Positions 1 through 24,737 of a DNA stretch of 24,737 nucleotides are shown in pieces. The notes below the pieces were generated by a model. It worked only from the letters and a program-made list of their open reading frames with translations. It was not told the DNA's origin and did no database searches. A program made the position numbers and the translations under genes. Source of the stretch: Deinococcales bacterium (lineage in GTDB: Bacteria > Deinococcota > Deinococci > Deinococcales > JAAFIG01); assembly GCA_031414595.1 (NCBI GenBank), contig JANNVX010000115.1:1-24737 (forward strand), in the 5' to 3' direction. Numbering within the stretch: the stretch's first letter is position 1; each line of letters begins with the position of its first letter.

Positions 1-186
1 CAAAATGTCGAACCAGTTGCGCCACTGTAAAACCCTGATTACTTAAACGTAGAATACTGGCTCTCAGACGAACTTTAGGGTGAATTCCGTGGGCTTGCTC
101 GAGTTGGCGTAATTGGCTATCTTCTTCTGGGCTTAATTTGACAAATCTTGGTCTACACATTCTTGTAGTTTACACGGGAAACACTT

Positions 187-804
187 ATGCAGCCATGTAT
201 CAGTTTAATCTGTAGCTCAGTTCACTTTTCTGGAATACTCCACAAAGAGCTTCAAAATTACGGTTTAGAGCTTTCAGACAACGCCGAACACATCATTTTA
301 GTTGAATCATCACTTGGTACAGTTTTGAGCGAACTCGAGAACTCCGAAATCGACCCGAGCAAAGTAGTTGTTTTCACCCCTAATCCATGCCCCGAATACT
401 GGCAAGATGTCCTCGAGATGGGCGTACTTGTGGTGGTCAGTTCGCTCAATAAAGGTATGGTCTTGGCTGCGGTAGAAGCCCTAAACAGCAAACGAGAACT
501 CAAACACATACCACAAGTAAAACAAGCCGCTTTAACCATCCAAGAACGTGATGTTCTAAGGCTTATCGCACGGAGCTTTAGCAACAAAGACATTGGCGAT
601 GTGCTAGGAAAATCCGAAAAGACGATCATGAACAACATTACCCACATTTTAGAAAAATTAACTGGAACATACCCAGAATTACGCTTCGATAACCGAGGTT
701 GCTTGGTGCATTACTATTACGGGTTTTGGAACAACATTGGCAAAGACTGTAGATACTCGAGAATTGCCAAAGAAAACCGACTCAAAAAGCGAAAAAACGG
801 GTAA
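187..804 (+). CDS. LuxR/NarL-family HTH transcriptional regulator with a degenerate receiver-like N-terminal domain
   Basis: The C-terminal LTIQERDVLRLIARSFSNKDIGDVLGKSEKTIMNNITHILEKL matches the LuxR HTH pattern (LTxxExxVLxLxAxGxSNxxIAxxLxxSxxT). The N-terminal alpha/beta region lacks a clear DD/D/K receiver triad. Confidence 0.85.
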   Translation: MQPCISLICSSVHFSGILHKELQNYGLELSDNAEHIILVESSLGTVLSELENSEIDPSKVVVFTPNPCPEYWQDVLEMGVLVVVSSLNKGMVLAAVEALNSKRELKHIPQVKQAALTIQERDVLRLIARSFSNKDIGDVLGKSEKTIMNNITHILEKLTGTYPELRFDNRGCLVHYYYGFWNNIGKDCRYSRIAKENRLKKRKNG

Positions 805-959
805 ATATGGCTAGGATGCTCGAGGGTATTTGTAAGAAGTGAGTAAAAAATTAAAATTATGCAGTTGTTTGGAATACGAAAACCGCAAGGGTTTTATCCC
901 GAGACTACGGGGGGAAACTCCCTTCACTTGAGTATGAGCAGCAAGTTAGGCTTTTTGGG

Positions 960-979
960 AACTACGCTCGAGAGTAGTT
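960..979. promoter_or_regulatory. 20-bp near-perfect palindrome, candidate operator upstream of the lipoprotein gene
   Basis: AACTACGCTCGAGAGTAGTT has 9 of 10 symmetric pairs and ends 29 bp before the ATG at 1009. Confidence 0.4.
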
Positions 980-1008
980 GAGTCACAAACACAAAGCTGG
1001 AGTCCAAG

Positions 1009-2133
1009 ATGAAAAAAGGTTTTGGTTACGAATTGATGTGTCTTTTATCGTGTTTTTTAATTCTATTCTCGAGTTGCGGGTCAAGTTTACCGCAAGACAT
1101 CCAACCCGAACCAGCGCCAATAAATTCAAAGCCCGCCGTTGTGCGCCCACAATGGTTTTGGCAAGGTGCTTGGTGGGGAACAACAGGGGCTTTAGCGCCA
1201 GAAGCTATTACAACAATTCAGCAAAACCCATGGATTCTTTCGGGAGCAAGGCTGGCAAGACAAGCAGCCCTTGGAGTTTCAGACGCACCTGCTTTTGATT
1301 TTCAAGGGGCGCGACAAATTTGGAATGAACAAGCTCAAAGGCTATCCATCCTAATTCCTTTTGTTGGAGATACTTCTCCTTATGGAGCTATTGTTAATAT
1401 TGCTCCAGTATTTTTCTGGTTTGGGGAACATGAAAAACGAATATCTAGTGTTAGTTACGGCGGATTCTCAAAGACCCAAACTGCCAGTGGTCGTGTTTAC
1501 CCTCAAGGATTAAATCTTGCGGCAGCAATACAAGATAAAGTGGTTTTCTCAAGCGTAATCATTAAACCTACAGGACAACTTGGCGAAGCAAACATGGCTG
1601 TTGCTTCACGAGCAACAGGACAAAAAGTAAATTGGTTTTCAACTCGCGCACCAGTGACAACACAAGTGCAAATTAAATCAATGTTTAATCCTAAACTTAC
1701 GGCGCAGGCTTTAGTTATAGTCGAGTGTGCGTTTGCGAGCGAGTCAAATCCAAGAAACCTACCTATTTGTCCAGTGACACCGATAACTCCAGGAAAGGAT
1801 TACTCTGTCCCACCAAGCGGGACTCCTCAAGAATCACAACCTATTGTAAATCCTCCAGTGAATTGTAATGATCTTGCCCAGCAAGTCAACTCTCTAGCAG
1901 CCGCTTCCACTCGTGCCTATGCTAATTTGATTGGAAATATAATGGTTGGTGCTGGAGCATGTGTCTTATCTGCTGTTACAGCACCGAACCCAGCAAGTTT
2001 TGCAGTTTTCCTTTTGGTGGTCACTATATGTGCAGGTGGGGGAACATTGATTTGGGTTGCGATTGACGGCTATCAGGAAGCACAAAGACTCTTTGAGGAT
2101 AAGTCAAGGGAGTATGTGGCTCAGTGTACATAG
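1009..2133 (+). CDS. Hypothetical lipoprotein with a Pro-rich linker and C-terminal hydrophobic Cys-bounded hairpin (bacteriocin/toxin-like architecture)
   Basis: 374-aa ORF with GGAG upstream, MKK plus a hydrophobic stretch plus LFSS-C23 lipobox, a Pro-rich segment at ~aa 255-284, and Gly/Ala-rich hydrophobic segments at ~aa 305-352. Confidence 0.75.
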   Translation: MKKGFGYELMCLLSCFLILFSSCGSSLPQDIQPEPAPINSKPAVVRPQWFWQGAWWGTTGALAPEAITTIQQNPWILSGARLARQAALGVSDAPAFDFQGARQIWNEQAQRLSILIPFVGDTSPYGAIVNIAPVFFWFGEHEKRISSVSYGGFSKTQTASGRVYPQGLNLAAAIQDKVVFSSVIIKPTGQLGEANMAVASRATGQKVNWFSTRAPVTTQVQIKSMFNPKLTAQALVIVECAFASESNPRNLPICPVTPITPGKDYSVPPSGTPQESQPIVNPPVNCNDLAQQVNSLAAASTRAYANLIGNIMVGAGACVLSAVTAPNPASFAVFLLVVTICAGGGTLIWVAIDGYQEAQRLFEDKSREYVAQCT

Positions 2134-2283
2134 AAAATGAGTGTGGATTTAAGTGGTTAAAAATTGATTGGGTTTATTGGAGACTAAACTCAAAACATTG
2201 TAACGAGGTGCATCTTGTTACAATGAATTATGGGTAAGAACCAATTTCTACAGATGTTCTAATTTCAATAGATATGTCGTCCT

Positions 2284-2311
2284 ATAGGGCAGATATGATG
2301 GTCTGCCCTAT
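2284..2311. repeat. Intergenic REP-like hairpin
   Basis: ATAGGGCAGA-tatgatgg-TCTGCCCTAT forms a perfect 10-bp stem with no U-tract. Confidence 0.55.
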
Positions 2312-2462
2312 GAAATCTAAATTCGTCTGTAATGTACTAAATCAAGAATATCACGAATTATTGAAAATGGGGTTTTGGGTAATAAGTCCTAAATTATCTT
2401 AAATGTTATACACTTAAACAGGATAAGTTTACTGATTCTTTTGGCTTTCAGGAGGTGTTGAA

Positions 2463-2744
2463 GTGATGAATTTCCTTATTTTTGCGTTTCCCGTTCTTTT
2501 ATTCATTTTCTTATGGTTTTTCTTTATTAAAAAACCACACACTAGAAAAGCCTTCTACGTTTTTTGTATGCTTTCGCCAAATTTGGCATTTCTACCAAGT
2601 CTGCTTCAGAACCCTCGGCTCATTTTTCCATTGACATTGCCAGATGGTGGTGTACTGATTTCACCACATATCATGGGTTTTTTGAATATATTCGCTATTA
2701 TTTTTGCTTATCTACTCACTATTCAAAAGCAAAAATCTCAATAA
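2463..2744 (+). CDS. Small hypothetical membrane protein (~3 hydrophobic segments), candidate immunity/accessory protein
   Basis: AGGAGG at 2450-2455 sits 7 nt before the GTG. The 93-aa product is rich in F/L/I with basic patches (KKPHTRK, QKQK). Confidence 0.7.
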   Translation: MMNFLIFAFPVLLFIFLWFFFIKKPHTRKAFYVFCMLSPNLAFLPSLLQNPRLIFPLTLPDGGVLISPHIMGFLNIFAIIFAYLLTIQKQKSQ

Positions 2745-3022
2745 GTTGTAAAGTCCTGTTGACGATGAGCATTTGATAGTGATTATCCGTGGTACAAATC
2801 ATTATTTAATCACGATTTGTACCTCTAAAACTCCGCAAATCTCGAGAAAGGCTGCTCTGGCGATTTCAAATTCTCCAGCGTGCCGCATTTCTATTCGTAA
2901 ACCGCTTCGCCATTTACCACGTTTAAGCGCACTTTTTGTTTTATCAAGCACGCTGGTCAGTTCAGGGTACAACTGGGCAATATATTTTCCGAACCACTGC
3001 CTTATGCGTTATGCTTTAGCAC

Positions 3023-4207
3023 ATGAAACAATCAACCCTTGCGGCTCGAGCCGGACTTGAACTTGAACTTGGACTTGGCACACCAATTAACCCCGCGATT
3101 CATCAAGCCACGGTCTATGCTTACCCGAGTTTAGAGGATTTAGAACGGGTCTTTCAGGGCGAAAAAGGGTACATTTACTACCGCAACGGTCATCCAAATG
3201 CCACAGCTTTAGAGACTCTACTGGCACAACTCGAATTTGCCCAAGCATCGGCGGTCTCGAGCAGTGGGATGGCAGCGATTTCGGCGCTGCTGCTGGGTAA
3301 TTTACGGGCTGGCGATCATATAATTGCTGACCAGAATGCCTACGGCGGTACTTTTGCGCTTTTAACTTTGGATTTACCCCGCTTTGGACTCGAGGTCAGT
3401 TTTATCGATGTGCAGGATTTAGCAGCCGTAGAAGCGGCTTTTTTGCCAAACACCAAATGGCTGCATTTAGAAAGCCTGTCCAATCCAACCATTCGGATTG
3501 CCGATGTTGGCAACTTGGTGGCTTTAGCCAAAATCAGAGGCGTAACGGTTTGTGTGGATAATACTTTTGCCAGTCCAGCCTTGTTAAATCCGATTGCCCT
3601 AGGCGCAGATGTGGTGGTGCATAGCCTTGCCAAATATATTGGTGGGCATGGGGCAGTCATGGGAGGGGCAATCATGGGCAGCACAAGCCTTATAGAAGCC
3701 GCCCGAAGCGCACTGCTACGGTTTGGTGGGACAATGGCGGCACTGGATGCTTGGTTGGCACTTCTGGGGGCAAAAACACTGGCTTTACGCATGGCACAAC
3801 ACAGTCAAAACGGTCTAGCGGTTGCTCAGTTTCTCGAGACACACCCGAAAATCATTCGGGTAGATTACCCCGGACTGGCATCGCACCCACAACACCAATT
3901 AGCCAAAGACCTGCTTAAAAATGGTTTTGGTGGCATGATGTCTTTTGAGTTGGGTGGCGGTTTGGCATCTGCTTCGAGTTTTGTAAAAGCCATCAGCCAT
4001 GCCATTCCGCTTGCGCCTAGCCTCGCCGATGTCTCGAGTACCCTGTCTTATCCGACTGGCACAAGTCACCGTGCCTTAAGCCCCAAGGCTCGAGCCAACA
4101 TTGGTGTGACCGATGGCTTACTGCGTTTATCGGTGGGGATAGAGGATGTAACCGATATTATTGGCGACTTGACACAGGCGCTTGACACAACGACGCTGCA
4201 CGTTTAG
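3023..4207 (+). CDS. Trans-sulfuration family PLP-dependent enzyme (cystathionine gamma-synthase/beta-lyase/methionine gamma-lyase-like)
   Basis: Motifs SSGMAAI, YGGT, ESLSNP, VDNTFASP, HSLAKYIGGH (PLP lysine), GFGGMMSF and LLRLSVGIED. The exact substrate cannot be assigned. Confidence 0.93.
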   Translation: MKQSTLAARAGLELELGLGTPINPAIHQATVYAYPSLEDLERVFQGEKGYIYYRNGHPNATALETLLAQLEFAQASAVSSSGMAAISALLLGNLRAGDHIIADQNAYGGTFALLTLDLPRFGLEVSFIDVQDLAAVEAAFLPNTKWLHLESLSNPTIRIADVGNLVALAKIRGVTVCVDNTFASPALLNPIALGADVVVHSLAKYIGGHGAVMGGAIMGSTSLIEAARSALLRFGGTMAALDAWLALLGAKTLALRMAQHSQNGLAVAQFLETHPKIIRVDYPGLASHPQHQLAKDLLKNGFGGMMSFELGGGLASASSFVKAISHAIPLAPSLADVSSTLSYPTGTSHRALSPKARANIGVTDGLLRLSVGIEDVTDIIGDLTQALDTTTLHV

Positions 4208-4210
4208 ACT
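4182..4210 (+). promoter_or_regulatory. Sigma70-type promoter for the tRNA-His / tRNA-Leu / tig region
   Basis: TTGACA (4182-4187), a 17-bp spacer, then TAGACT (4205-4210), 21 nt before tRNA-His. Confidence 0.8.
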
Positions 4211-4231
4211 CCTTTACGCCTTCGGGCTTGT

Positions 4232-4309
4232 GGTGGGTGTAGCTCAGCCGGTTAGAGCGCCGCTCTGTGGCAGCGGAGGTCGCGGGTTCAAATCCCGTCA
4301 CCTACCCCA
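4232..4309 (+). tRNA. tRNA-His (GTG)
   Basis: Acceptor stem GTGGGTG/CACCTAC with G-1:C73, D-arm AGCTCAGCCGGTTAGAGC, anticodon arm CCGCT-CTGTGGC-AGCGG, T-loop GGTTCAAATCC and encoded CCA. Confidence 0.97.
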
Positions 4310-4313
4310 AATG

Positions 4314-4340
4314 AATCCCGAGAGCTTTTTCTCGGGATTT
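4314..4340 (+). terminator. Hairpin after tRNA-His (terminator or processing stem)
   Basis: AATCCCGAGA-gctttt-TCTCGGGATT forms a 10-bp stem with only a weak T-tail. Confidence 0.5.
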
Positions 4341-4380
4341 GATTCTTTAGCGTTCTTATAGTAGGCTCTTTCGGCTTGAT

Positions 4381-4465
4381 GCGAGGATGGCGGAATTGGT
4401 AGACGCGCTGGACTTAGGATCCAGTGCCGTAAGGTGTGCGGGTTCAAGTCCCGCTTCTCGCACCA
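4381..4465 (+). tRNA. tRNA-Leu (TAG)
   Basis: Acceptor stem GCGAGGA/TTCTCGC, D-arm TGGCGGAATTGGTAGACGC, anticodon arm CTGGA-CTTAGGA-TCCAG, long variable arm, GGTTCAAGTCC and encoded CCA. Confidence 0.97.
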
Positions 4466-4483
4466 CAAAGGTTTTTAGGTTTA

Positions 4484-4537
4484 AGGAGTTTTGAACCACA
4501 AAAGAGAAGTTTTGAACCACAAAAGAGGAGTTTTGAA
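4484..4537 (+). repeat. 21-bp tandem repeat (~2.5 copies) containing the tig ribosome-binding site
   Basis: AGGAGTTTTGAACCACAAAAG / AGAAGTTTTGAACCACAAAAG / AGGAGTTTTGAA, followed directly by ATG. Confidence 0.9.
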
Positions 4538-5782
4538 ATGGCAGAATTATTGCAACGCGAAGGTAATAAAGTGAAGTTCAAAGTGGTTGTTCCAGCCACT
4601 GAAGTCGCCAAGGCATTTGACGGAATCATCAATCAATTGGTGCGTGAAGTCCGTGTCCCTGGCTTTCGTCCGGGCAAAGCCCCAAAAGCCATGATTGAAA
4701 AACGAGTCGGTACAGAATTTCTCGAGAACGAAGTCACCAAGCACCTGATTGAACAAAATTATGGGGCTGCTGTCAAAGAACTGAAACTCATTCCGGTCTC
4801 TGCCAATGTAGACCCGGGCAAGCTCGAGAAAGGCACAGAATTTGAATTTACGGTAGATGCCGAGAATTATCCAGAGGTAACGCTGCCCAACTGGGAAGCC
4901 TTTGCAATAGAAGCCCAAGCCCCAGTGGTTGGCGAAGAAGATGTCCAAAAAGCCCTCAACGAACTCTTACAAAGCCGTGCAACTTACGAACAAGTTGAAC
5001 GCAGCGCCGAAGCCGAAGATATGGTCAATGTTGAAATTCTCGAGGGCGAAGACGCTGGTAAAACCTATCCTGTCTATCTCGAGCGAGCCGAAGCTGGGGT
5101 GCGGAATGCCCTCTTAGGACAGGCTGTGGGTGCCGAAGCCGAAGTGATTGTCCAAGGTGGCGACAAGCCAGAGGACGAACAAACCGTTCTTAAAGTCAAA
5201 ATTTTAGACATTAAGAATAAAGTTGTGCCAGCCTTGGACGACGAATTTGCCAAGAGCTTTCAGCTAGACAACATAGACAGTGTAGAAAGCCTGACCACAC
5301 GCATCAAAGCCGACCTTGAAGCCCAAGCGATTCAAACTGGAAAACAAGCCCGCCGTGATGAATTTGTCAAAAAACTGGGCGAAGGCAGCACACTCGAGAT
5401 TCCACAAATCATGATTGAACGCCGTGTTGCAGCAATGGAACAAGACCTCGAGAACGACTTGCAAAAACAAGACATCACCTTAAAATCCTACCGTGAATAC
5501 CTTGGTAGCGAAGGTAAACTTGAAGAATTTGAGCAAGATATTTTGACAGGTGCAAATTTGCGGGTTCGCAATGACCTTGCGCTCGAGAAACTCAGCGAAA
5601 GCTTAGGCACAAAACTCGACAATGACGAATGGGCAACCGCCATTCGCAACTATGCCGTTTCGGTGCGTACCAGCGTGCCAAACCTCTTAAAAGCCCTAGG
5701 CGACGAAGGCGTGGATAATTTCCGTGTGATTGCTACCCGCGACAAAGCCTTAGAGACTGCCTTAAATAAACTCGGTGCATAA
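4538..5782 (+). CDS. tig: Trigger factor (ribosome-associated chaperone), 414 aa
   Basis: Signature VPGFRPGKAP, with LDDEFAK and IPQIMIE. The start is moved to ATG 4538 (GAGGAG at 4525-4530) because the longer ORF begins inside tRNA-Leu. Confidence 0.96.
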   Translation: MAELLQREGNKVKFKVVVPATEVAKAFDGIINQLVREVRVPGFRPGKAPKAMIEKRVGTEFLENEVTKHLIEQNYGAAVKELKLIPVSANVDPGKLEKGTEFEFTVDAENYPEVTLPNWEAFAIEAQAPVVGEEDVQKALNELLQSRATYEQVERSAEAEDMVNVEILEGEDAGKTYPVYLERAEAGVRNALLGQAVGAEAEVIVQGGDKPEDEQTVLKVKILDIKNKVVPALDDEFAKSFQLDNIDSVESLTTRIKADLEAQAIQTGKQARRDEFVKKLGEGSTLEIPQIMIERRVAAMEQDLENDLQKQDITLKSYREYLGSEGKLEEFEQDILTGANLRVRNDLALEKLSESLGTKLDNDEWATAIRNYAVSVRTSVPNLLKALGDEGVDNFRVIATRDKALETALNKLGA

Positions 5783-5791
5783 AGATTGTTT

Positions 5792-5822
5792 AACTCGAGG
5801 GCATGATGTCCTCGAGTTTTTT
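5792..5822 (+). terminator. Rho-independent terminator after tig
   Basis: Stem AACTCGAGGGCA-tga-TGTCCTCGAGTT followed by a T-run, between convergent genes. Confidence 0.85.
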
Positions 5823-5841
5823 ATAGTTTGTGCTTCAAGAA

Positions 5842-6228
5842 TTAAGCGTACTCGAGCAATTTAGCCCGAGCCACATCTGGCACAACCAAACTCTGCTTAG
5901 CATGGTGGTCATACCAAACCAGCACCGTCTCGAAGTTAGCGCACAAGATGTCATTGGCAATAACTTCGTGCTGCACAGTAAAACTTTTTGTTCCAACCTT
6001 AATAACCCAAGTGCTAATTTGCACTGTATCACCGTAATGCACTGCCCTTACATGACTCGCCACGACTCGAGCCAATAAACAACTGGGGAATTGCTTATCG
6101 GTAATCCCAAGAAAAGCAAAGAACTCGAGCCGAGCAAATTCGGTGTACGAGAAAAAAACCGCATTGTTGACATGCCCAAGCATATCAAGGTCGGCAAAAC
6201 GAACCACCATTGGCGTAAAAAACTTCAT
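5842..6228 (-). CDS. Acyl-CoA thioesterase, 4HBT/YbgC-like hot-dog fold
   Basis: VRFADLDMLGHVNNAVFFSYTEFAR motif. The start is set at MKFF (6228) because the upstream extension is translated heptamer repeat. Confidence 0.9.
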   Translation of the reverse strand: MKFFTPMVVRFADLDMLGHVNNAVFFSYTEFARLEFFAFLGITDKQFPSCLLARVVASHVRAVHYGDTVQISTWVIKVGTKSFTVQHEVIANDILCANFETVLVWYDHHAKQSLVVPDVARAKLLEYA

Positions 6229-6229
6229 C

Positions 6230-6257
6230 CTTCGCCTTTTGCCTTTCGCCCTTCGCC
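6230..6257 (-). repeat. Heptamer tandem array (4 x GGCRAAR) between glgC and the thioesterase gene
   Basis: Minus strand reads TGA GGCGAAG GGCGAAA GGCAAAA GGCGAAG G ATG. Confidence 0.8.
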
Positions 6258-7502: not shown

Positions 7503-7597
7503 ATTGTGTACCTCCGGATAAGACAGTATAACAGTCTCTTAGATAAATAAGGCAACATAGAATTAAGTTGTCATGATTTATTTGTAAACTGTACAGC

Positions 7598-8752: not shown

Positions 8753-8764
8753 TAAAATACACCC

Positions 8765-10162
8765 ATGTCAACCCGTACAGAAACCGACACGATGGGCGCT
8801 CTCGAGGTAGATTCCAGCCGTTACTGGGGCGCTCAAACCCAACGCAGCATTCAGAACTTCCCCATCGGACGTGACCGTTTTATTTGGGGTCGGGCGATTA
8901 TTCGTTCACTCGGGGTGCTGAAAAAAGCCGCCGCCCTTGCCAATGCCGAATTGGGGCAACTGCCGCAGGATGTGGCAGATTTGATTGCTCGAGCCGCCGA
9001 TGAAGTGATTACCGGCAAACTCGATGATCATTTTCCTTTGGTGGTTTGGCAAACGGGTTCTGGAACACAAAGCAACATGAATGCCAACGAAGTAATTTCT
9101 AACCGCGCTATTGCCTTAGCGGGCGGTGAATTGGGCAGTAAAAAACCAGTTCACCCAAACGATCATGTAAACCGTGGGCAGAGCAGCAATGATACTTTTC
9201 CAACGGCAATGCACATTGCCGTTGTCGAAGAACTGCACCGACAACTTTATCCAAATGTTTTGCTGTTGCGTGAGACACTACACCAAAAAGCCCAAGCATT
9301 CTCGAGCATCGTTAAAGTCGGACGCACCCACCTGCAAGATGCCACCCCGATTACCCTAGGACAAGAAATTGGGGCTTGGGTGGCGCAAATAGATTTTTGT
9401 CTCGAGCAGGTACGACACGCTGAAAAAGGTTTATATGAACTGGCGATTGGCGGAACAGCCGTTGGTACGGGCTTAAATGCCCATCCAAAATTTGGTGATT
9501 TAGCGGCACAGAAAATGGCAGACATTACAGGTTTACCATTTACTTCTGCCCTGAATAAATTTGCCGCACTTGCGGCGCACGATGCGCTTGTGACCACCTC
9601 GAGCAGTTTGCGGACACTGGCTGGCGCACTGATGAAAATGGCAAATGATGTGCGTTGGTTAGCCAGTGGACCACGCAACGGGATTGGCGAAATTGACATT
9701 CCAGAAAATGAACCCGGCTCGAGTATCATGCCCGGTAAAGTCAACCCAACCCAATCCGAAGCCATGACGATGGTCGTGGCACAAATTTTTGGCAATGATG
9801 CAACTGTGGCTTTTGCGGGTTCACAAGGCAATTTTCAACTCAATGTTTTTAAGCCCGTGATGGTGCATAACGTCATCGAAAGTATTGCCCTGCTCGGCGA
9901 TGCCTGTGTTTCTTTTAATGATAATTGTGCGGCTGGCATCGAGCCAAATCTCGAGCGAATTGCCCAAAACCTAGGTACAAACCTAATGCAAGTGACTGCC
10001 TTAAACCGTCATATTGGCTACGACAAAGCGGCTGCAATTGCCAAAAAAGCCCATAAAGAAGGCTTATCTTTGCGCGAAGCTGCCTTAAAACTGGGCTTTG
10101 TGACCGATACCGAATTTAACGAATGGGTGATTCCGCTCGAGATGACGTATTCAAAGGAATAG
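8765..10162 (+). CDS. fumC: Class II fumarate hydratase
   Basis: Motifs [47 protein letters not shown] and [13 protein letters not shown]. Confidence 0.98.
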
Positions 10163-10228
10163 GCTATGGGCTATGAGTCTTGAGCTATGAGGTAAAGCTC
10201 AAGGCTCATAGCCCATAGCTCATAGCTC
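10163..10228. repeat. Inverted heptamer arrays (RGCTATG)n forming a 24-bp hairpin between convergent genes
   Basis: GCTATGGGCTATGAGTCTTGAGCT (10163-10186) pairs with AGCTCAAGGCTCATAGCCCATAGC (10196-10219) with one wobble. Confidence 0.85.
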
Positions 10229-11338: not shown

Positions 11339-11449
11339 GGTGCATTCTAACAGGCAAATCACACCACGCCGCAAACAGGCAAAACGCACTAGCCTCTGAA
11401 AGGTCTTGATTTTTTGAATTTTCCACAGAAGTGCATGAATGGAAAAACG

Positions 11450-11474
11450 GGGCGAACACGGAGGTTCACCCATA
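11450..11474 (-). repeat. REP-like hairpin
   Basis: Minus strand TATGGGTGAAC-ctccgt-GTTCGCCC gives an 8-bp stem with one wobble. Confidence 0.45.
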
Positions 11475-16338: not shown

Positions 16339-16341
16339 GAT

Positions 16342-18300: not shown

Positions 18301-18321
18301 GATTCACCCTCCTTTCTTGAC

Positions 18322-20664
18322 TTAGGCTGGTAAGCGGAAACGCTCTAAGTTTGCCGATAAATTCTGTGCCAATTGACGCAATTGTTCGGCATTATTTTGA
18401 CCACTTTGGCTCTGCTCACGGGCTGATTGGGCGGTGGCGGCAATCGTCTGAACGGCTTGAGTTACATTCTGGACACGACTCACTTGGTTGCGTGTCACCT
18501 CGGAAATGCGGTTGGCAAAGTCCGATGATTGCTGTGCCAATTGTGCGATTTGTTCTAACTGATTACCTGCTTGCGAGGCGATTTTATAGCCAGACTCAAC
18601 TTCTTTTGTACCGTCTTCAATACCGACCACCAAGCCCTGAATTTCGGTTTGAATACTCTTAATTAAGCCCGCTACACGGCTGGTGGATTTCGCCGAGTCT
18701 TCTGCCAAGCGCCGTACTTCGTCTGCCACAATCGCAAAACGAGCGCCCGCTTCACCCGCACCCGAGGCTTCAATCGCGGCGTTTAAGGAAAGAAGGTTGG
18801 TTTGCGCCGCAATACCAGAAATCGTATCCACGATTTCTTGAATCTCGAGCGACCGGTCTGAAAGGCTTTTAACTGACTTAGAAATGTTGCTGACTTCACG
18901 ACGAATCGAGTTCATGCCAGTTAAGGTTTCTTGCACCGCTTGTTGTCCTTCACGACTGGCATCGAGGGTGCGCTGCGCGATGACGGCGGTGTCGGAAGCG
19001 GTGGTGGTTAATTCCTCGAACTGCTGACTGACTTCAAGTGCTTGGCTTTGGGCTTCTTGGGCGATTTCTTCTTGGCTGACTGCACCTTGTACAATGTTGC
19101 GGCTGGCATGAGTTAATTCTCTTGCGCCTGAATTGACTTGTTCGGTCGTGGCTTGAACATCTTTTAGTAAGTAACCAACTTCTTCGGTCATCAGGTTAAT
19201 TGCGTCAATCACGTTACCCAATACATCTTCAGAGACCCGCCCTTTTTTGGTAAAGTCGCCACCTGAAATATCCATCGCCACGTTTAAGAATTCACCAATG
19301 TTATCTTGGAGTTGTTTAGAGCGCACCGCTTCATCGCGCTGACTATCCACGAAATCACGAAGTTGCAGTACTGAATTATTAAACGCGATACCCAACTGAC
19401 CGATTTCGTCTCGAGAGCGCACCGCCATGGTTTGCGATAAATCGCCAGAACCAAATTTCTCGGCAACCCCCACCATTTCTGAAAGCGGTCTGGTAATCGA
19501 ACGGGCTGTAAAAAACGCAAAAAGTAATAACAACAAGACTAAAACGAGCAAACCAATCAAAACCAAGCGCTGGGTATTTTGCAAAGCACGAACCCGTTGC
19601 TCGAGCAGTTCGTTCAGTTTAGCCAAAGCATTATCGTACAGACTGTAATAATTGGTCAGCAAACGGTTCATACCCGACACGAAATTAGGGATAGGATAGC
19701 CAACAATTGGATTATTGACCCCTTCTGAAAGACCCCCAACTTCTTGAATAAAGGTACGTTCAACCACATCGTCTAAAGTTGCTGTCGCGGCACGGTTATA
19801 ACCACCAGTCTGCAAGAAAAATTGCCGAAGTTCTTTGGGATTTGCATCGGCTGCAAATGAAGCCGAGCGTTCGGCTTCGGTTAAAACCGTCCGAACTCGA
19901 GACAAAATGGCATTCAAACGAAATTTTTCATCTTCAACAATCCGCTTACGGGTAAGAATACCCACACCAAACCCAGAAATTTGACCAAGGTCATCTAAAA
20001 TGGTTGGCAATTTGTTGATCGTTAAGTCGACTGTATACAACGAGTCTAAAGAAGGGTCAAGCACAAGGTTTGAGTTATTAGCAATAATTCGCAGTAAGTC
20101 AAACATTTCTGTGCGAATTAAGCGATTATGCGCCGTAAAGTTGGCATCAGATGTGTTGGTCACAAGGTTTTCTTCGATGTTGCGCCAACTGGTTTTCACT
20201 TTTTCATAGCCTTCATCGGCTTTGAATGACTTGCCAAATCGGTTATTGAGTCCGTCGGTGGTGGCAAGTAAGACATTGATTTCTTCAGCTTTCTTTTGGC
20301 GTTCTTGAATTGTTGCTCCGCCTGAGCGTTGCTGGGTTACCAAACCACGATGCTCTGAAAAACGTTGTAAGAGTGTTCCTAAACTGCGTAAATACAAAGC
20401 GCCATCGCGTTCACGTAAAGAAAAATTGATTTGTTGTTGTTGTTGATTCAAAAGTAAAAAGGTAACGATGCCCAAAGGAATCATCAGCGACAACACCAAA
20501 AATAGTAAGCGGGTGGAAACCAAAAACCCACCGCGTGGTGCAGAGGCTGCTGAGGCTGTTGTGGCAACAGTTTCAAACTCGATAGAGGTCACACTCGAGC
20601 TAGGCGAATCGGTTTTTTTACGAGAACCGAACAACGAGAACTTGGGTTTCTTGGTCGCGTTCAT
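18322..20664 (-). CDS. Methyl-accepting chemotaxis protein 1 (PilJ-like), 780 aa
   Basis: Two TM segments, a large extracytoplasmic domain, [13 protein letters not shown] and [32 protein letters not shown]. The start is set at ATG 20664, 7 nt after AGGAGG. Confidence 0.93.
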
Positions 20665-20733
20665 TGGCAGACCTCCTGTGACGGGTTCATCGGCGAACCT
20701 CCCTGTGGCAGCTTCATAAGGCAACCTCCTGTG
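20657..20733 (-). repeat. Three tandem 26-27-bp units, each CACAGG(G)AGG-N7-ATGAA
   Basis: CACAGGAGGTTGCCTTATGAAGCTGC / CACAGGGAGGTTCGCCGATGAACCCGT / CACAGGAGGTCTGCCAATGAACGCG. Confidence 0.8.
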
Positions 20734-20746
20734 TTAAAAACTAAAC

Positions 20747-21223
20747 TCATGATAAAACCCGATTGACAGTTGTCGGAACTGTAAACACAACCTGACTCGA
20801 TTGTGGTGCAAAGACCATAGACAATTGATCCAGAATTTTAGGTAATGAAAGCATTGGAATAACTTCGCCAGCGTAACGCATTCCACCTTGGCAAATTGGC
20901 TCGAGAATTGGGTCTATGGTGGTAACAGCCGCTTCAAAAACCACAAAGCCTAGGGCGGCATCTATACCAATCCCAAAATTTTTGGCTTCAAATTCGAGTT
21001 GGACTGCAAATTCGTGCTTGGGAATTGGCAGTTTTAGCAAAGGCTCGAGTGCCACAATCGGAATGACCTGTGAACGCAAAGCAAACAATCCAAGTAAGGC
21101 GCTGGCGGTTCGTGGCGCACGGCGCAAATCAGTCAGGCTATAGACTTGACGGGTATATGCCCCAGCAATACCAACCCTAAACTGTCCAAATTGAACCACG
21201 CAAGCCCGTTGACTCGAAATCAT
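20747..21223 (-). CDS. cheW: CheW-family coupling protein (divergent)
   Basis: ALLGLFALRSQVIPIVALEPLL matches the CheW GxxNLRGxIxPxxDL pattern, with FGIGIDAALG. It lies between the receiver gene and an MCP gene. Confidence 0.85.
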   Translation of the reverse strand: MISSQRACVVQFGQFRVGIAGAYTRQVYSLTDLRRAPRTASALLGLFALRSQVIPIVALEPLLKLPIPKHEFAVQLEFEAKNFGIGIDAALGFVVFEAAVTTIDPILEPICQGGMRYAGEVIPMLSLPKILDQLSMVFAPQSSQVVFTVPTTVNRVLS

Positions 21224-21230
21224 AATTTCC

Positions 21231-21596
21231 TTAAGAAGCCGTTAAACGCGCCACCATGTTTAGTAAAGCATCGGCGGTGTAGGGTTTTGGCAAGTAATCG
21301 GTTGCCCCTTGGCGTTTGCCCCATTCAATATCGGTCGGTTGGTCTTTACTCGAGATGATGCAGACAGGAATATCTTTACTGCTTGGGTCACGGCGTAATT
21401 TACGCAAAATTTCATAACCGTTGCGTTGCGGCATAACCACATCAAGTAAAATCAAATCTGGTTTTTCTTGTTCAATCAGGGCTTCTACACCTTCGCCATT
21501 GATGCACATGGCGACCCGGTGAGCCGCACCTGTCAGAATTGATTCGGCAAATTTTAAGTCTGCCATTGAGTCGTCTACAGCGATTATCTTTGCCAT
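21231..21596 (-). CDS. Single-domain response regulator (PilH/CheY-like)
   Basis: AVDDS, LLDVVMPQRNGY, ISSKDQPTDIEWGKRQGATDYLPKPY. The D..WG..QGA..Y..KP tail is typical of PilH. It is the first gene of the operon. Confidence 0.92.
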   Translation of the reverse strand: MAKIIAVDDSMADLKFAESILTGAAHRVAMCINGEGVEALIEQEKPDLILLDVVMPQRNGYEILRKLRRDPSSKDIPVCIISSKDQPTDIEWGKRQGATDYLPKPYTADALLNMVARLTAS

Positions 21597-21805
21597 GAGT
21601 TACCTCTAAAATTGAGAGTAAGGCATTTGTAATGCCTAATAAGATACCGTACCAGACTTCTGAGTGAAGTTGTGTGCGTTTTGTACATCGGCTAAATAGG
21701 CTCAGTCTAAACAACGTCTCATCCCTCCAAGGGTAACAACTAAAAATTTTGAACTGCTGTATTCTACGCGGTATTCTAAAATGTGCAATTGTTTTTGGGG
21801 CGACC

Positions 21806-24481
21806 ATGAAACCAGAGTATCCACCAGCAGACCAGCCGCCAAACTCTAAACTCGAGATTCGGGCGGCTTCGGCAGGGACTGGTAAAACCACCAGTTTGGT
21901 GAGGATGTACTTAGAAGCCTTAAAGCACACCCCAGCCCGAAGGATAGCGGCAGTGACGTTCACACGGGCTTCAGCACGTGATTTGCGGGAGCGTTTACGG
22001 GCGGGGCTATTAGAACTGCTTGAGACTGGGCATTATTTGGATGTGACCCTGCATTCCAGAAATCCATTTGAACGTGCTTTACAAGAGTTAGACTCGAGTA
22101 TAATATCAACCATTCATGGTTTCTTTCGGGTTTTGTTGCGCCTAAACGCCCCAAGCCTAGGCTTAGACCCAGAATTTAGCAACTTGGACGAAAGCCAAGC
22201 TAAAGATATTTACCGTGCTGCCAGCAGTGGTGTTCTTGCTAAAGCCGCCCTGTTTGGTGGGGCGGGTACAAATTTACTGGCTCAGCAAGGCTGGGACGAA
22301 GCCTTGAGCGCCTTAGAAACCCTTTTTGAAAAACGGGTCTATGCACCATTTCACAGCACCGATTTGAGCTTACTCGAGGCATACAACTCCGCCATTAACC
22401 AATACCAAAACCACTTGGCAAATAGCAGTTTATCTGCCACCGACATTGAAATAAAAACTTTGCAGTTACTCGAGAACCCCGAGTGCCTAAAACGCATTCA
22501 AAGCCGTTATCATTTGCTGTTGGTAGACGAATTTCAAGATGTCAACCCGCTTCAAGCTAAAGTCTTTACCCAGCTTAAACTAAAACATATTATTTTTGTC
22601 GGTGATGCCAAACAAAGTATCTATGCTTTCCGCGATGCAGACGTAACGGCTTTTATCGAGATGTACCAAAAAGCCACCCCCCTACCGCCCCTAACCACCT
22701 CGTACCGCCACGGAAAAGCCCTGACTGCACTCTACTCGAGCCTCGCCGAAAACCTTTTTAGCGAATTTAGTGAACAAGGGCTACCTGCCAGTGTCAGCAG
22801 TGGGCGTAAGCTAGACGCAACTTCAAACGCCGAAATCCATTTAATTGAAGCCAGCAGCCTAGAAAACGGACGAAACACCGAAGCCCGAATTATTGCCAAA
22901 CGCCTCTGGGAAATCCATCAACAAGGCTATGCGTGGCGTGAGATAGCCATTTTACTTCGCACCCGAACTTCTTTAAGTCATCTCGAGCCAAGCCTTAAAT
23001 TCGCCCAAATTCCATTTTTGGTCGGCAGTGGACAACGCTACTATGACCGCCGTGAAATCCGTGATGCGATGTTGCTGCTACGGGCTAAGCTCTATCCTTT
23101 TGCCCCAGAAACCTTGGCAGCGCTGGCAAGGTTGCCCAGCATTAACTTGCCGTTAGGGATAATCGAAAAACTCTTTAAGAACCCCAAAGCGGCGCTGCAA
23201 ACCGACGAATTTAGCGCCCTGACCGAATTGCTCGAGGTGATTCATGCCAGTACCGACGCGCTTAGTTTACTCGAAGCCGCTTGGATGCACCTTGGTATCA
23301 ACTTAACCCGAGAAGCCCAAAGCTATGCCAATTTAGATGGCTTATTATACCAATTGGCAGCCAGAGGCGCACGCGACCCTCGAGCCGCCCTTGCCTTTTT
23401 AGAACGCGCCCAACTTGGCGAAGCCGAAGGTGACGAGCCACTTGAGGGACAAGACGCGGTACGAATTCTAACCATCCATGCTTCCAAAGGACTCGAGTTT
23501 CCAATTTGTGTGGTTTTTGATTTATCACGCAGTGAACGCAATAACACCGATTTGTTAGCCATTCACCCCAACGGAGAAATTGCATGGCGCGGCACAGACC
23601 GCTACCACAGCATCCAAAGACATTGGAACGCAAGGCGCGATGGTGAAGCCAACCGCTTACTCTATGTTGCCATGACCCGCGCCAAAGACCATTTGATACT
23701 GACTGGCTCGAGTACCGGCACAAGCCGTGGCTGGCTGGCAACCTTAGAAAAAATCGGACTGCAAAACCTGCCGCACTTAGAAGTTTTTAGCCACCCAGAA
23801 GACCAAACTATCCCGCTCGAGACCAAAACAAGCACCACAGCATTCATCACCCTGATTCCTAATCCACAACTTGCCAATGCCACCTTTAAGCGCCACAACC
23901 CACGGGTACGCGCCCCCACCCGTTCACCCCAAGCAGGCGAACTCGAGACACAAAGCGATGAACTCCAACTGCTGGATTTACTGCACGGAGAAGCCAACAC
24001 CATCCCCCAAGCCGAACGGGTGATTGGCACACTTGCCCATTATGCGATAGCTGAAAATTTCTTGAGCAGCAACAACACCCAACGCCAAATTTTAAGCGCT
24101 CAGTATGTTCTGCACCCGTACACCGTTGAGGAACGCCAAGCCATGCTGAACAGTGCCTGGTGGTACTTAGAACAATACGAAAAGCTCTATCCCAACCGCC
24201 AAAACCGCCTAGCTGACTACGCCGAACTCCCGTTTGCGTACCAACAAGGCGAGACCACTTGGCAAGGCATCATAGACCGTTTGTATCAAGAAGAAAACGG
24301 CAATTGGATTCTCGAGGACTATAAGACCGACAGTATCCCAATCGTAGAACTCCCACAACGCGCAAGGGCTTACGAACGACAACTAGGCATTTACCAAGAA
24401 GCCGTGCGAAAAGCCCGAAATATCGAACCCGAACTACGATTAACTTTTTTGCACCACGGCATCATTTACAAATTAGGGTAA
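21806..24481 (+). CDS. addA: UvrD/SF1 helicase fused to a RecB-type PD-(D/E)XK nuclease (AddA-like)
   Basis: Helicase motifs ASAGTGKT, AVTFT, STIHGF, VDEFQDVN, VGDAKQSIYAFR, TIHASKGLEF and LLYVAMTRAK, with nuclease motifs GIIDRL, DYKT and QLGIY. The start at ATG 21806 is a best guess. Confidence 0.88.
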   Translation: MKPEYPPADQPPNSKLEIRAASAGTGKTTSLVRMYLEALKHTPARRIAAVTFTRASARDLRERLRAGLLELLETGHYLDVTLHSRNPFERALQELDSSIISTIHGFFRVLLRLNAPSLGLDPEFSNLDESQAKDIYRAASSGVLAKAALFGGAGTNLLAQQGWDEALSALETLFEKRVYAPFHSTDLSLLEAYNSAINQYQNHLANSSLSATDIEIKTLQLLENPECLKRIQSRYHLLLVDEFQDVNPLQAKVFTQLKLKHIIFVGDAKQSIYAFRDADVTAFIEMYQKATPLPPLTTSYRHGKALTALYSSLAENLFSEFSEQGLPASVSSGRKLDATSNAEIHLIEASSLENGRNTEARIIAKRLWEIHQQGYAWREIAILLRTRTSLSHLEPSLKFAQIPFLVGSGQRYYDRREIRDAMLLLRAKLYPFAPETLAALARLPSINLPLGIIEKLFKNPKAALQTDEFSALTELLEVIHASTDALSLLEAAWMHLGINLTREAQSYANLDGLLYQLAARGARDPRAALAFLERAQLGEAEGDEPLEGQDAVRILTIHASKGLEFPICVVFDLSRSERNNTDLLAIHPNGEIAWRGTDRYHSIQRHWNARRDGEANRLLYVAMTRAKDHLILTGSSTGTSRGWLATLEKIGLQNLPHLEVFSHPEDQTIPLETKTSTTAFITLIPNPQLANATFKRHNPRVRAPTRSPQAGELETQSDELQLLDLLHGEANTIPQAERVIGTLAHYAIAENFLSSNNTQRQILSAQYVLHPYTVEERQAMLNSAWWYLEQYEKLYPNRQNRLADYAELPFAYQQGETTWQGIIDRLYQEENGNWILEDYKTDSIPIVELPQRARAYERQLGIYQEAVRKARNIEPELRLTFLHHGIIYKLG

Positions 24482-24499
24482 GGGGCTAAAAGCAAAGAC

Positions 24500-24599
24500 C
24501 CATTGCTCGAGAGTGATTGTGCATCAACGCCACGCAACCCTCACCCAACTCGCTTGAAGCTCGTTACCCTCATCCCGCCAAACAGCGCGGGAGAGGGTT
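24500..24599 (+). repeat. ~100-bp dispersed repeat, copy B (downstream of the addA-like gene)
   Basis: 24536-24599 is identical to the reverse complement of 11691-11754. Confidence 0.95.
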
Positions 24600-24737
24600 A
24601 TACCAACTTTAGGTAGATAATAAGGAATGTCAAGATTAGGCACACCTCTAACCGCCCACCATACGACTGAAGAACTCGAGAAACACTACAAACAGTGCAA
24701 AGATGCCAAAGAAAAAACTCGTCGCCAAGTGATATGG
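24599..24737 (+). mobile_element. Probable left end of an IS630-family element (truncated by the window)
   Basis: TA-TACCAA lies immediately after the repeat. An open frame from ATG 24627 to the window end (MSRLGTPLTAHHTTEELEKHYKQCKDAKEKTRRQVIW) resembles IS630 transposase HTH N-termini (H..EEL...Y...KD..E....Q.IW). Confidence 0.65.
24627..24737 (+). CDS. Partial CDS, N-terminus of a probable IS630-family transposase / HTH protein
   Basis: 37 open codons to the end of the window. It is too short to appear in the supplied ORF track. Confidence 0.65.
   Translation, partial: MSRLGTPLTAHHTTEELEKHYKQCKDAKEKTRRQVIW

Follow-up and report, generated by a model that had tools for sequence, protein, structure and literature searches.

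Why should a single six-base palindrome, CTCGAG, recur 4.2 times per kb along a stretch of Deinococcales DNA? The window analysed here, meaning the whole stretch of 24,737 nt, contains exactly 104 copies, the number at which the preliminary description had arrived by an approximate hand count. That description likened the word to HIP1, the highly iterated palindrome of cyanobacteria, and supposed a genome-wide mechanism that creates or selects CTCGAG. It also named three outcomes that would speak against this reading: loss of the enrichment under a null preserving amino acids and codon usage, an explanation by TCGA frequency, and confinement to the window. None of the three was obtained, and both the HIP1-like reading and the supposition of a genome-wide mechanism are supported by the results below.

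CTCGAG is enriched throughout the genome and in every reading frame

Dinucleotide-preserving shuffles of the window (n = 100) yielded a mean of 3.0 CTCGAG (sd 1.64, largest 7), which makes the observed number an enrichment of about 35-fold. The whole genome (an assembly of 120 contigs, the longest of 305 kb) holds 23,235 copies, 5.2 per kb or about one per 190 bases, with each contig at 2.3-5.75 per kb. CTCGAG is the top 6-mer of the genome, 3-fold ahead of the others and 21-fold above the uniform 6-mer expectation; against a codon-preserving null the excess is about 10-fold in the window as well as in the genome. The 5-mers CTCGA and TCGAG are almost confined to CTCGAG itself, so that the genome-wide ratio of only 1.16 given by a maximal-order Markov model carries no information. 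CTCGAG read in reverse, GAGCTC, is found 6 times in the genome and CGATCG 3 times, and HIP1 is essentially absent. TCGA frequency does not explain the excess: 69% of all TCGA in the genome (23,235 of 33,474) sit within CTCGAG, and NTCGAN words other than CTCGAG are at or under expectation.

Gene calls in the window were ORF-based. Its coding copies read CTC GAG (Leu-Glu) in 60 cases, xCT CGA Gxx in 14 and xxC TCG AGx in 21, and the frames assigned earlier at 3045 (GCT CGA G) and 9718 (GGC TCG AGT, GSS) were correct. The non-coding copies lie at 98, 819, 967, 2841, 5794, 5811, 11780, 24506 and 24675, a set that includes all seven non-coding sites named previously. Shuffling synonymous codons within the 17 genes (n = 500) produced 8.7 ± 2.8 coding copies, the largest number being 16, compared with the 95 observed. 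Genome-wide, 20,067 coding copies were counted and 1,951 were expected when amino acids and codon usage were both preserved; by frame, the counts were 12,037, 3,874 and 4,156 with 1,299, 400 and 252 under the synonymous null, so that each frame is enriched 9-16-fold. CTCGAG is equally dense within genes (5.14 per kb) and outside gene calls (5.35 per kb), and spacers of 20-150 bp contain 5.28 per kb at 42% GC. The density is also flat around gene starts and ends, so that CTCGAG plays no regulatory part at the level of genes. At the six positions on either side of the core, base frequencies are near-uniform (0.17-0.30). CTCGAG is thus not a repeat element, and an interspersed repeat of the REP or MITE kind was rejected because no sequence is conserved outside the core. 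The word is a bare hexamer without conserved flanks, present at equal density in all frames and in intergenic DNA.

CTCGAG overrides codon choice and has altered amino acids. It has doubled Leu-Glu in the proteome, a visible proteome cost: the dipeptide is 2.22-fold over-represented (20,098 observed, 9,034 expected), and Glu-Leu is not (0.98-fold). The Leu-Glu frame accounts for 60% of the genome's coding copies and GC-rich genomes commonly have 1.4-1.9 CTCGAG per kb, which would suit a by-product of coding or composition, whether through a preferred Leu-Glu codon pair, an abundance of TCGA or a hidden family of repeats. That explanation is nevertheless refuted by the TCGA, synonymous-null and Leu-Glu results, and the equal intergenic density, the uniform flanks and the scarcity of GAGCTC also stand against it; we regard it as virtually impossible. 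We infer instead that the force on CTCGAG works on the DNA duplex and on each site individually, and that a symmetric (dimeric) protein reading the palindrome would exert it.

The word is shared by a whole family and its sites are held in place

All 18 other genomes of this uncultured Deinococcales family, in which five genera are represented, carry 4.3-6.8 CTCGAG per kb; the word is common to the whole family. The enrichment is present at both 45% and 61% GC and is therefore independent of base composition. Across the phylum there is a gradient between strong avoidance and an intermediate level of enrichment, and the genera that lack enrichment or strongly avoid CTCGAG include the largest ones. 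We found no published report of CTCGAG enrichment in this lineage.

Between this genome and another of the same genus (145 orthologue pairs), 58, 43 and 53% of CTCGAG sites were conserved by frame, compared with 18% of other hexamers; where the amino acids were unchanged, conservation rose to 75, 61 and 85%, compared with 31-33%. A genome of another genus with 61% GC (87 pairs) still gave 33, 15 and 22%, compared with 8%. A CTC codon preceding GAG was retained in 70% of cases, compared with 31% for CTC elsewhere. CTCGAG sites have thus been held in place over evolution beyond protein constraint, a positional conservation that selection and a corrective repair bias could each produce.

Under a repair or mutation bias without function, near-cognates would be converted to CTCGAG or mutated sites restored, and copies would accumulate until protein constraint halts them. 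Several observations agree with such a process: the equality of coding and non-coding density, the uniform flanks, the grading of the trait across the phylum, the native CTCGAG density of sporadically distributed methyltransferase genes, and a density unrelated to how conserved the protein is (Spearman -0.09 and -0.12, neither significant). Spacing is near-random as well (coefficient of variation 0.99; median 138, 133 expected), which is compatible with any site-by-site process. The precedent is Dcm/Vsr very-short-patch repair in E. coli, a repair bias that enriches a methylase target and raises CCWGG. The CTCGAG enrichment is far larger than that effect, Vsr (PF03852) has no match in this genome, and the one-off C-to-T words CTTGAG (1,154) and TTCGAG (1,306) are not depleted against a composition expectation of about 1,000 by our own arithmetic; Vsr-type repair was rejected on these grounds. 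No other candidate enzyme is known, and the trait persists, despite its proteome cost, in at least five genera and over a GC range of 45 to 61%. Xu et al. are also on record as reading the conservation of HIP1 sites as selection and not as biased repair (PMC5861425), a pattern that corrective bias could mimic. Altogether, we consider a function-less bias improbable.

Sites and gaps in the window

Table 1. Features of the window that bear on the distribution of CTCGAG.
Feature	Position	Strand	Remark
CTCGAG copies, 104 exact	98..24680	.	95 in 17 genes, three frames; 9 intergenic
Intrinsic terminator hairpin directly 3' of trigger-factor gene	5792..5818	+	CTCGAG in both stem arms (5794, 5811), then U-run
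CTCGAG across invariant fumarase GSS signature (GGC TCG AGT)	9718..9723	+	purely synonymous choice
CTCGAG as Leu-Glu near fumarase C-terminus	10136..10141	+	residues altered to fit the word
CTCGAG-free stretch, 1,767 bp, GC 40%	1074..2840	.	most of accessory ORF 1009-2133 and ORF-poor DNA behind it
tRNA-His and tRNA-Leu genes, zero CTCGAG	4233..4465	+	constrained RNA genes escaping the word

Individual sites illustrate how the word is accommodated (Table 1). The terminator behind the trigger-factor gene, with a minimum free energy of -26.1 kcal/mol (z = -7.1 against 200 shuffles), is an example of CTCGAG incorporated into a functional structure. Genome-wide, 25.9% of adjacent intergenic CTCGAG pairs lie at most 40 bp apart, compared with 10.9% of other adjacent pairs, nearly all of them coding. 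In fumarase, the GSS signature is present in 20 of 20 outgroup proteins, none of which spells it with CTCGAG, and the CTCGAG spelling is found in seven of nine family orthologues. At the C-terminal site, eight of the nine encode LE by CTCGAG, and the outgroups have LD, IE, ID or MD, with CTCGAG in 0 of 20. The 68 tRNA genes of the genome contain 7 copies, compared with 27.5 expected at genome density.

The site-free stretch has a Poisson chance of about 1e-4 of containing no copy at genome density. Its ORF matched no Pfam family, and of the 18 other genomes in the family only two yielded homologues (33-36% identity); the stretch is probably recently acquired DNA without the mark. Thirteen low-density islands (1.0-1.7 CTCGAG per kb), mostly of low GC, were identified in the genome, and those annotated comprise a gene cluster for surface polysaccharides, a transposase, and an RHS toxin accompanied by a SIR2-like gene. 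With its scarcity in these acquired islands and in the accessory site-free stretch, CTCGAG behaves like a mark of self. Our best guess, offered tentatively, is that CTCGAG may be a self-DNA tag in natural transformation or homologous recombination. Fragments or alleles carrying the word would be preferentially taken up or recombined; CTCGAG would spread in this way and then be kept by biased conversion and selection, a course already proposed for DNA-uptake sequences and, of late, for HIP1, and foreign DNA would come in without it.

No conserved methyltransferase was found to accompany the word

CTCGAG is a classical restriction-modification target, the recognition word of XhoI/PaeR7I-type systems, and an XhoI-family endonuclease with a partner gamma-class methyltransferase exists in the phylum. 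The endonuclease family (Pfam XhoI, PF04555) was matched in 4 of 201 genomes elsewhere in the phylum and in neither this genome (G000) nor a second family genome (G006). M.XhoI-like methyltransferases were found in 13 of the 201, and thus occur without the endonuclease in sister genera. A search of 19 family genomes with an M.XhoI-like probe returned no orthologue; the best match had 27% identity and seven genomes had none. An XhoI-type restriction footprint was rejected because PF04555 was missing from the two family genomes searched and an M.XhoI-like orthologue from all 19, and restriction targets are normally avoided, not enriched.

An orphan methyltransferase might still modify CTCGAG, the mark serving mismatch-repair strand discrimination, replication control or regulation, or methylation-coupled repair restoring the sites. 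At one per 190 bp, CTCGAG is about as dense as GATC in E. coli; at least 24 genes of this genome encode methyltransferase domains, their specificity not being assignable from sequence, and the solitary M.XhoI-like enzymes of sister genera point the same way. Methylated CTCGAG is on record for Halorubrum (PMC8112702) and for MAGs from hot springs together with their phages (10.64898/2026.06.24.734251), and cyanobacterial HIPs are reported by Elhai to be accompanied by a cognate methyltransferase (PMC4390886).

The distribution of the enzymes argues against such a mark. When 55 ORFs with a methyltransferase domain (Pfam DNA_methylase, N6_N4_Mtase, N6_Mtase and Eco57I), drawn from six genomes in five genera, were clustered, no group was present in more than three of the six and none was common to the five genera; specificity is not readable from sequence, and unrelated enzymes could share the target. 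One genus representative had no C5-methylase match, and a single-contig genome had no N6_N4 match. One genus (g13) is CTCGAG-enriched as a whole, yet only 4 of its 18 genomes have an M.XhoI-like enzyme. A Dam/D12 domain is present in 18 of 19 family genomes; in this genome a gene of the MutH/Sau3AI family lies beside it and GATC sites are avoided, which probably denotes a GATC restriction system. The missing Vsr and the undepleted T-variants weigh against methylation-coupled repair too. As far as gene content shows, CTCGAG appears not to be tied to a conserved methyltransferase, and methylation-directed repair, one of the options in the preliminary description, receives no support from that side. 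A methylation-linked word seems to us possible, if rather unlikely.

CTCGAG and known genomic words

HIP1 (GCGATCGC) and CTCGAG are alike in being short exact palindromes that are many-fold over-represented clade-wide, in genes and between them, with sites conserved between genomes. They differ in word, in length (8 and 6 bases), in phylum and in density, CTCGAG being denser at 5.2 per kb compared with the 0.3-2.7 per kb tabulated for HIP1 (PMC4390886, Table 2). HIP1 also goes with DmtA and DmtC, and no conserved cognate methyltransferase was found for CTCGAG. Of the properties that mark the HIP class, CTCGAG shows over-representation, occurrence in all frames and non-coding DNA, positional conservation and clade-wide sharing; the conserved cognate orphan methyltransferase described by Elhai (2015) has no apparent counterpart in the gene content. 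Single cyanobacteria possess alternate HIPs (GCsGC, rCCGGy and HIP1 derivatives), so different palindromes fill the HIP role in different lineages; as presented in that paper, all are cyanobacterial and each has a methyltransferase of matching specificity (PMC4390886). Its text contains neither CTCGAG nor Deinococcota.

The function of HIP1 is itself unsettled, the proposals being methylation-directed repair, nucleoid structure, or uptake and recombination (PMC4390886; PMC5861425; PMC13756078; 10.1101/2024.09.10.611283). Xu et al. (2018) favour a chromosome or nucleoid-structure role and describe a long-range HIP1 periodicity of 10-90 kb (PMC5861425). An abundant dimeric DNA-binding protein that reads CTCGAG to compact or align chromosomes would fit a DNA-level, genome-wide, strand-symmetric palindrome with a flat profile around genes, but the short-range spacing is random and no candidate protein is known. 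We hold this to be very doubtful.

The proposed self-DNA tag has analogues in the uptake sequences DUS (Neisseriaceae) and USS (Pasteurellaceae), family-wide self words that occur in all frames, alter proteins, are positionally stable and rare in foreign DNA, and frequently come as pairs in terminators. CTCGAG parallels them: it is family-wide and clade-specific, lies in all frames, has changed proteins, is positionally stable, is scarce in islands, is enriched in close pairs between genes and, in one terminator of the window, forms the stem. Uptake sequences are, however, non-palindromic, oriented words of 9-12 bases at about 1 per kb with an experimentally demonstrated uptake bias, and CTCGAG is a bare 6-base palindrome about five times denser. 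To our knowledge, all known uptake sequences are longer than six bases, and DNA uptake by those competence systems of the phylum that have been studied shows no preference for sequence. Chi sites, moreover, depend on an orientation that a palindrome lacks. The genera without enrichment or with strong avoidance, the largest of the phylum among them, also count against a tag, and the near-random spacing would suit a repair bias without function too. Competence machinery is represented by the ComEC uptake-channel domain in 18 of 19 family genomes, but also in 10 of 14 controls; since nearly all bacteria have ComEC, its presence proves little.

For the closest analogue, cyanobacterial HIP1, sites are stated to raise natural transformation up to >100-fold (10.1101/2024.09.10.611283) and an uptake-sequence role is now proposed for HIP1 (PMC13756078). 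The reported effect needs methylation (10.1101/2024.09.10.611283), which counts against a self-DNA tag here, where no conserved methyltransferase was found. Whatever the force behind it, CTCGAG belongs with the highly iterated palindromes as a genomic word under active maintenance, and in another phylum it parallels HIP1, the still unexplained palindrome of cyanobacteria.

CTCGAG is enriched in the window and throughout the genome

An exact count finds 104 CTCGAG sites in the window, spanning 98-24680, the very number that the preliminary description had estimated by hand. Dinucleotide-preserving shuffles (n = 100) contain 3.0 (sd 1.64, largest 7). According to ORF-based gene calls, 95 of the sites lie within 17 genes and nine are intergenic, and the coding sites divide by frame into 60 CTC GAG, 14 xCT CGA Gxx and 21 xxC TCG AGx. 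The frames earlier read at 3045 and 9718 are correct, and all seven sites earlier placed in non-coding DNA are confirmed there. Shuffling of synonymous codons inside the window genes leaves 8.7 ± 2.8 sites (largest 16 in 500 shuffles) versus the 95 observed.

The 4.49-Mb assembly to which the window belongs as contig C115 (G000; 120 contigs, 47.2% GC, 94% complete) holds 23,235 CTCGAG sites, equal to 5.18 per kb and 21 times the uniform expectation. The next-ranking 6-mers overlap the motif and reach a third of this number. A rough home-made ORF and codon-score caller delimited 3,734 genes (3.90 Mb) that contain 20,067 sites, or 12,037, 3,874 and 4,156 by frame, versus 1,951 (1,299, 400 and 252) after within-gene synonymous shuffling and 912 after shuffling of codon order. 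The enrichment is therefore not a codon-usage artefact, every frame being in excess. Density is 5.35 sites per kb outside called genes versus 5.14 inside, and spacers of 20-150 bp carry 5.28 per kb at just 42% GC. TCGA frequency is not the cause either, as CTCGAG makes up 23,235 of the 33,474 TCGA in the genome. A maximal-order Markov null gave an observed/expected ratio of 1.16 and was rejected as a test; it is circular because the sub-words CTCGA and TCGAG hardly exist apart from the motif.

The pattern, first described from the window, extends well beyond it. Every contig of G000 carries 2.3-5.75 sites per kb, and all 18 other genomes of the same Deinococcales family (f1, five genera) carry 4.3-6.8 per kb; GAGCTC, the reversed word, occurs just 0-568 times in them. 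Most relatives are incomplete MAGs (57-94% complete). The nearest named records, MAGs of Deinococcales or Deinococcota bacterium, have a trigger factor 72-99% identical to that of the window.

CTCGAG is a bare hexamer with near-geometric spacing

Base frequencies in G000 are 0.17-0.30 at six positions on each side of the word. The sole flank exception is CCTCGAGG, counted 178 times, where each of the remaining 15 flank pairs gives 1,108-1,905. Counts of the other NTCGAN palindromes are near zero (TTCGAA 29, GTCGAC 26, ATCGAT 89). The asymmetric words ATCGAC (63) and GTCGAT (59) are almost missing as well; these two and the CCTCGAGG flank may be further restriction targets.

Inter-site distances are close to geometric (coefficient of variation 0.99, median 138 versus 133 expected), with very short distances slightly short in number and multiples of three over-represented because of coding. 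The density profile is flat at gene starts and ends, save for a slight dip at start codons (4.1-4.6 per kb) and a slight rise past stops (6.6-6.8 per kb). Of adjacent intergenic site pairs, 25.9% are no more than 40 bp apart, versus 10.9% of the other adjacent pairs, which are nearly all coding. One such pair in the window forms a terminator stem (see the table of features). That the word is a site for a nucleoid protein ranks fourth among the explanations and appears very unlikely.

Locations of features in the window and elsewhere in G000
Feature	Location	Strand	Description
ORF	window 1009-2133		No usable protein-atlas match (best score 0.76)
Site-free stretch	window 1074-2840		Poisson chance about 1e-4; overlaps an accessory ORF that has weak homologues in just 2 of the 18 other f1 genomes
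Terminator	window 5794/5811		Strong terminator behind the trigger-factor gene, its stem formed by the site pair; -26.1 kcal/mol, z = -7.1
Fumarase sites	window 10136, 9301, 9598, 8801		LE or SS in f1; LD, IE, ID, SA or DD in outgroups
Fumarase GSS signature	window 9718		Invariant (20/20 outgroups); spelled CTCGAG in 7/9 f1 orthologues and in 0 outgroups
Repeated intergenic segments	window 10163-10219 and 11391-11475		About 77-88% identical copies on other G000 contigs and in relatives
Segment missing from related-strain contigs	window 10161-10225		65 bp; runs X5 and X6
Chemotaxis-like cluster	window 11819-21596	-	Two response regulators (one with DUF4388), hybrid CheA-like kinase, two methyl-accepting proteins, CheW, further receiver; ordinary content; 2.1-4.8 sites per kb
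S-layer gene slpA	G000:C86:22958-27511		Native; 1,517 aa, 54% GC, 1.5 sites per kb
Dam/D12-class methyltransferase gene	G000:C1:27108-28231		Loci L224, L402; the only one of its class in G000; MutH/Sau3AI-family gene directly after

The word marks protein sequence and is preferentially conserved

The G000 proteome has 20,098 Leu-Glu pairs where amino-acid frequencies predict 9,034 (2.22x), Glu-Leu stands at 0.98x, and CTCGAG spells 60% of all Leu-Glu. Both synonymous capture and residue change are seen in the fumarase gene of the window, where CTCGAG fills only 1 of 160 outgroup cells over eight sites.

When the window is aligned at the nucleotide level with 18 relatives, 77-88% of sites are kept in six of seven same-genus relatives (78-94% identity), the seventh keeping 5 of 12 window sites; other hexamers are kept at 22-70%. 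We further built codon alignments from 220 kb of G006, a genome of the window's genus (145 orthologue pairs), and 180 kb of G013, from another genus (61% GC, 87 pairs). In the same-genus comparison, the three frames retain 58, 43 and 53% of CTCGAG sites versus 18% for all other hexamers, rising to 75, 61 and 85% versus 31-33% where the amino acids at the site are the same. Between genera, the values are 33, 15 and 22% versus 8%. The CTC codon is retained at 70% when GAG comes next and at 31% elsewhere, and GAG at 78% after CTC and 42% elsewhere. About half of the sites differ inside the genus, mostly by at least two bases, and protein conservation is uncorrelated with site density (Spearman -0.09 and -0.12, not significant). 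Site conservation is also the ground on which Xu et al. (2018) argue that HIP1, the highly iterated palindrome of cyanobacteria, is under selection (PMC5861425). Contigs from four public runs, compared with window 3000-12900, place none of 40 listed variable places in CTCGAG where 1.3 are expected, a comparison that has no power with only 40 of 1,495 places.

The first of two repeated intergenic segments of the window behaves like a small inserted repeat, because contigs of related strains lack it together with its immediate borders.

Some native and accessory DNA is poor in the word

The 68 tRNA genes of G000 contain 7 sites versus 27.5 expected; the assembly holds no 16S rRNA gene. Thirteen islands, about 79 kb together and mostly 35-44% GC, carry 1.0-1.7 sites per kb. 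Six of the thirteen contribute 34 ORFs, of which 21 were annotated. Among them are a cluster for surface polysaccharide (29-43% GC), an RHS/PT-HINT polymorphic-toxin gene alongside a SIR2-like gene, a DDE transposase and the S-layer gene slpA. Presumably highly expressed, slpA may resist the word through strong constraint.

Viral contigs rich in triple sites were considered as phages of the clade and set aside, no such phage being recognisable among the loci listed. Of the 80 loci listed, the 25 with the highest density are all 59-72% GC and most have many GAGCTC too, suggesting a codon effect. A small number of GC-rich viral contigs (L289, L240/L241) combine 5-7 CTCGAG per kb with a lower count of GAGCTC; they might be phages that infect GC-rich members of the phylum.

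Methyltransferases, restriction and repair genes

G000 encodes at least 24 methyltransferase-domain genes, most at native motif density. Their CTCGAG density was tried as a residence clock and abandoned because 17 of the 24 reach 3.5 or more sites per kb, which affords no discrimination. NCBIfam assigned no specificity to six methyltransferases. For a comparison across the family, four Pfam families were searched in one genome from each of five genera. The resulting 55 ORFs from six genomes, with second pieces of an ORF, one stop-containing fragment and repeat matches in ORFs already taken left out, were clustered at ≥35% identity over ≥60% of the shorter protein. C5-methylase had no match in G010 and N6_N4 none in the single-contig G013. 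No cluster, grouped by sequence and not by target specificity, is present in more than three of the six genomes.

We then used as a probe an M.XhoI-like enzyme of presumed CTCGAG specificity, a gamma-class methyltransferase (Eco57I and TaqI_C domains) encoded immediately upstream of an XhoI-family gene in G104. It has no orthologue in the 19 f1 genomes (best match 27% identity, seven genomes without a match). Of 201 genomes of the phylum, 13 have orthologues at 43-61% identity, among them 4 of the 18 genomes of genus g13, which is enriched throughout; presence therefore does not track density. A gamma-class methyltransferase on contig C89, 23% identical to the probe, was dismissed as a candidate, with close orthologues in just 3 of 19 f1 genomes including G000. 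The XhoI endonuclease family (PF04555) was not found in G000 or G006 and occurs in 4 of 201 phylum genomes, with none in the CTCGAG-avoiding genus g7 (0 of 83 genomes); the ORF upstream of an XhoI endonuclease in G021 proved to be a spurious GC-rich frame. No conserved candidate for the orphan methyltransferase that the preliminary description suggested looking for emerged from these comparisons. A methylation-linked role for the word ranks second among the explanations, and the lack of any conserved methyltransferase weakens it and leaves it doubtful. The Vsr-like gene suggested in the same context was not found in a search of G000 (PF03852). Repair bias that would generate the word without any function ranks third and is unlikely.

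A Dam/D12 domain is present in 18 of 19 f1 genomes with very unequal scores, and ComEC likewise in 18 of 19. Considering the MutH/Sau3AI-family neighbour of the Dam/D12-class gene in G000 and the avoidance of GATC (seven-fold under-represented, 0.54 per kb), the pair looks like a GATC restriction system, not a mismatch-repair MutH. Other palindromes are almost missing from G000 (GGCC 152, CGATCG 3, TGCGCA 2, GGCGCC 3, GAGCTC 6, GTGCAC 6). This scarcity and the large set of methyltransferase-domain genes point to an unusually heavy restriction-modification load.

Enrichment is graded across Deinococcota

Among 150 further Deinococcota genomes, all from outside f1, the largest genus (g7, 77 genomes in the sample) avoids CTCGAG at about 0.01-0.27 per kb, and the 27 genomes of g9 carry about 0.6-1.6 per kb, comparable to GAGCTC. 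Genera g13, g14 and g15 carry 1.4-3.4 per kb with GAGCTC far rarer, and two genera of another family (f2) carry 1.55 and 2.4 per kb. Intermediate genera were checked on 100-kb samples, which are GC-rich and have rough gene calls. They are real but weaker versions of the enrichment.

CTCGAG in single genomes of three other genera
Genome	CTCGAG per kb	Synonymous-null ratio by frame	Intergenic per kb	Leu-Glu ratio
G038 (g13)	2.49	3.1, 15.6, 3.7	1.7	1.48
G019 (g6)	1.56	1.3, 8.9, 5.4	1.95	1.05
G036 (g7, avoider)	0.09	0.2, 0, 0.2	0.11	0.93

Discussion

For thirty years, highly iterated palindromes have posed a puzzle in cyanobacteria. The data here establish with high confidence that CTCGAG is maintained at the DNA level and that this is common to the clade, a conclusion we regard as robust. 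Full-text search, with most subscription journals outside its coverage, returned no report of CTCGAG over-representation in any bacterial lineage, and neither the word nor Deinococcota figures in the text of Elhai 2015 (PMC4390886). Compared with HIP1 of cyanobacteria, the present case involves another word in another phylum, is denser and comes without a detectable conserved methyltransferase.

We rank first, as quite possible though still tentative, the explanation that CTCGAG would serve as a self-tag for DNA uptake or recombination, a reading in line with the self-mark pattern, the paired sites in terminators and the new experiments on HIP1. Kamoku and Nielsen find natural transformation raised by HIP1 sites, with a dependence on homology and methylation (10.1101/2024.09.10.611283), and Rodriguez-Cruz et al. 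(2026) propose that HIP1 is an uptake sequence (PMC13756078). It is also possible, though on balance somewhat improbable, that CTCGAG is read directly and without methylation by a putative symmetric DNA-binding or -processing protein, marking self for uptake, recombination or repair in f1, with a weaker version in sister genera and the reverse in the largest genus. If so, CTCGAG would extend highly iterated palindromes beyond cyanobacteria for the first time and be the first of them to lack coupling to a cognate methyltransferase, and the phylum-wide gradient would offer a handle for finding the reader by phylogenetic profiling, an approach applied to HIP1 in PMC13756078.

CTCGAG is also a practical marker that flags foreign DNA in f1 genomes and could aid metagenome binning of the clade; XhoI-based cloning or digestion of clade DNA is expected to behave unusually. 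The range from strong avoidance in one genus through no enrichment in another and 2-3 per kb in several to 4-7 in f1 supplies natural contrasts for gene finding by comparative genomics. That an independent and denser second case exists in another phylum makes the phenomenon more general than cyanobacteria, and since the word differs and no conserved methyltransferase was found, it can part what is essential from what is incidental, such as whether methylation is needed.
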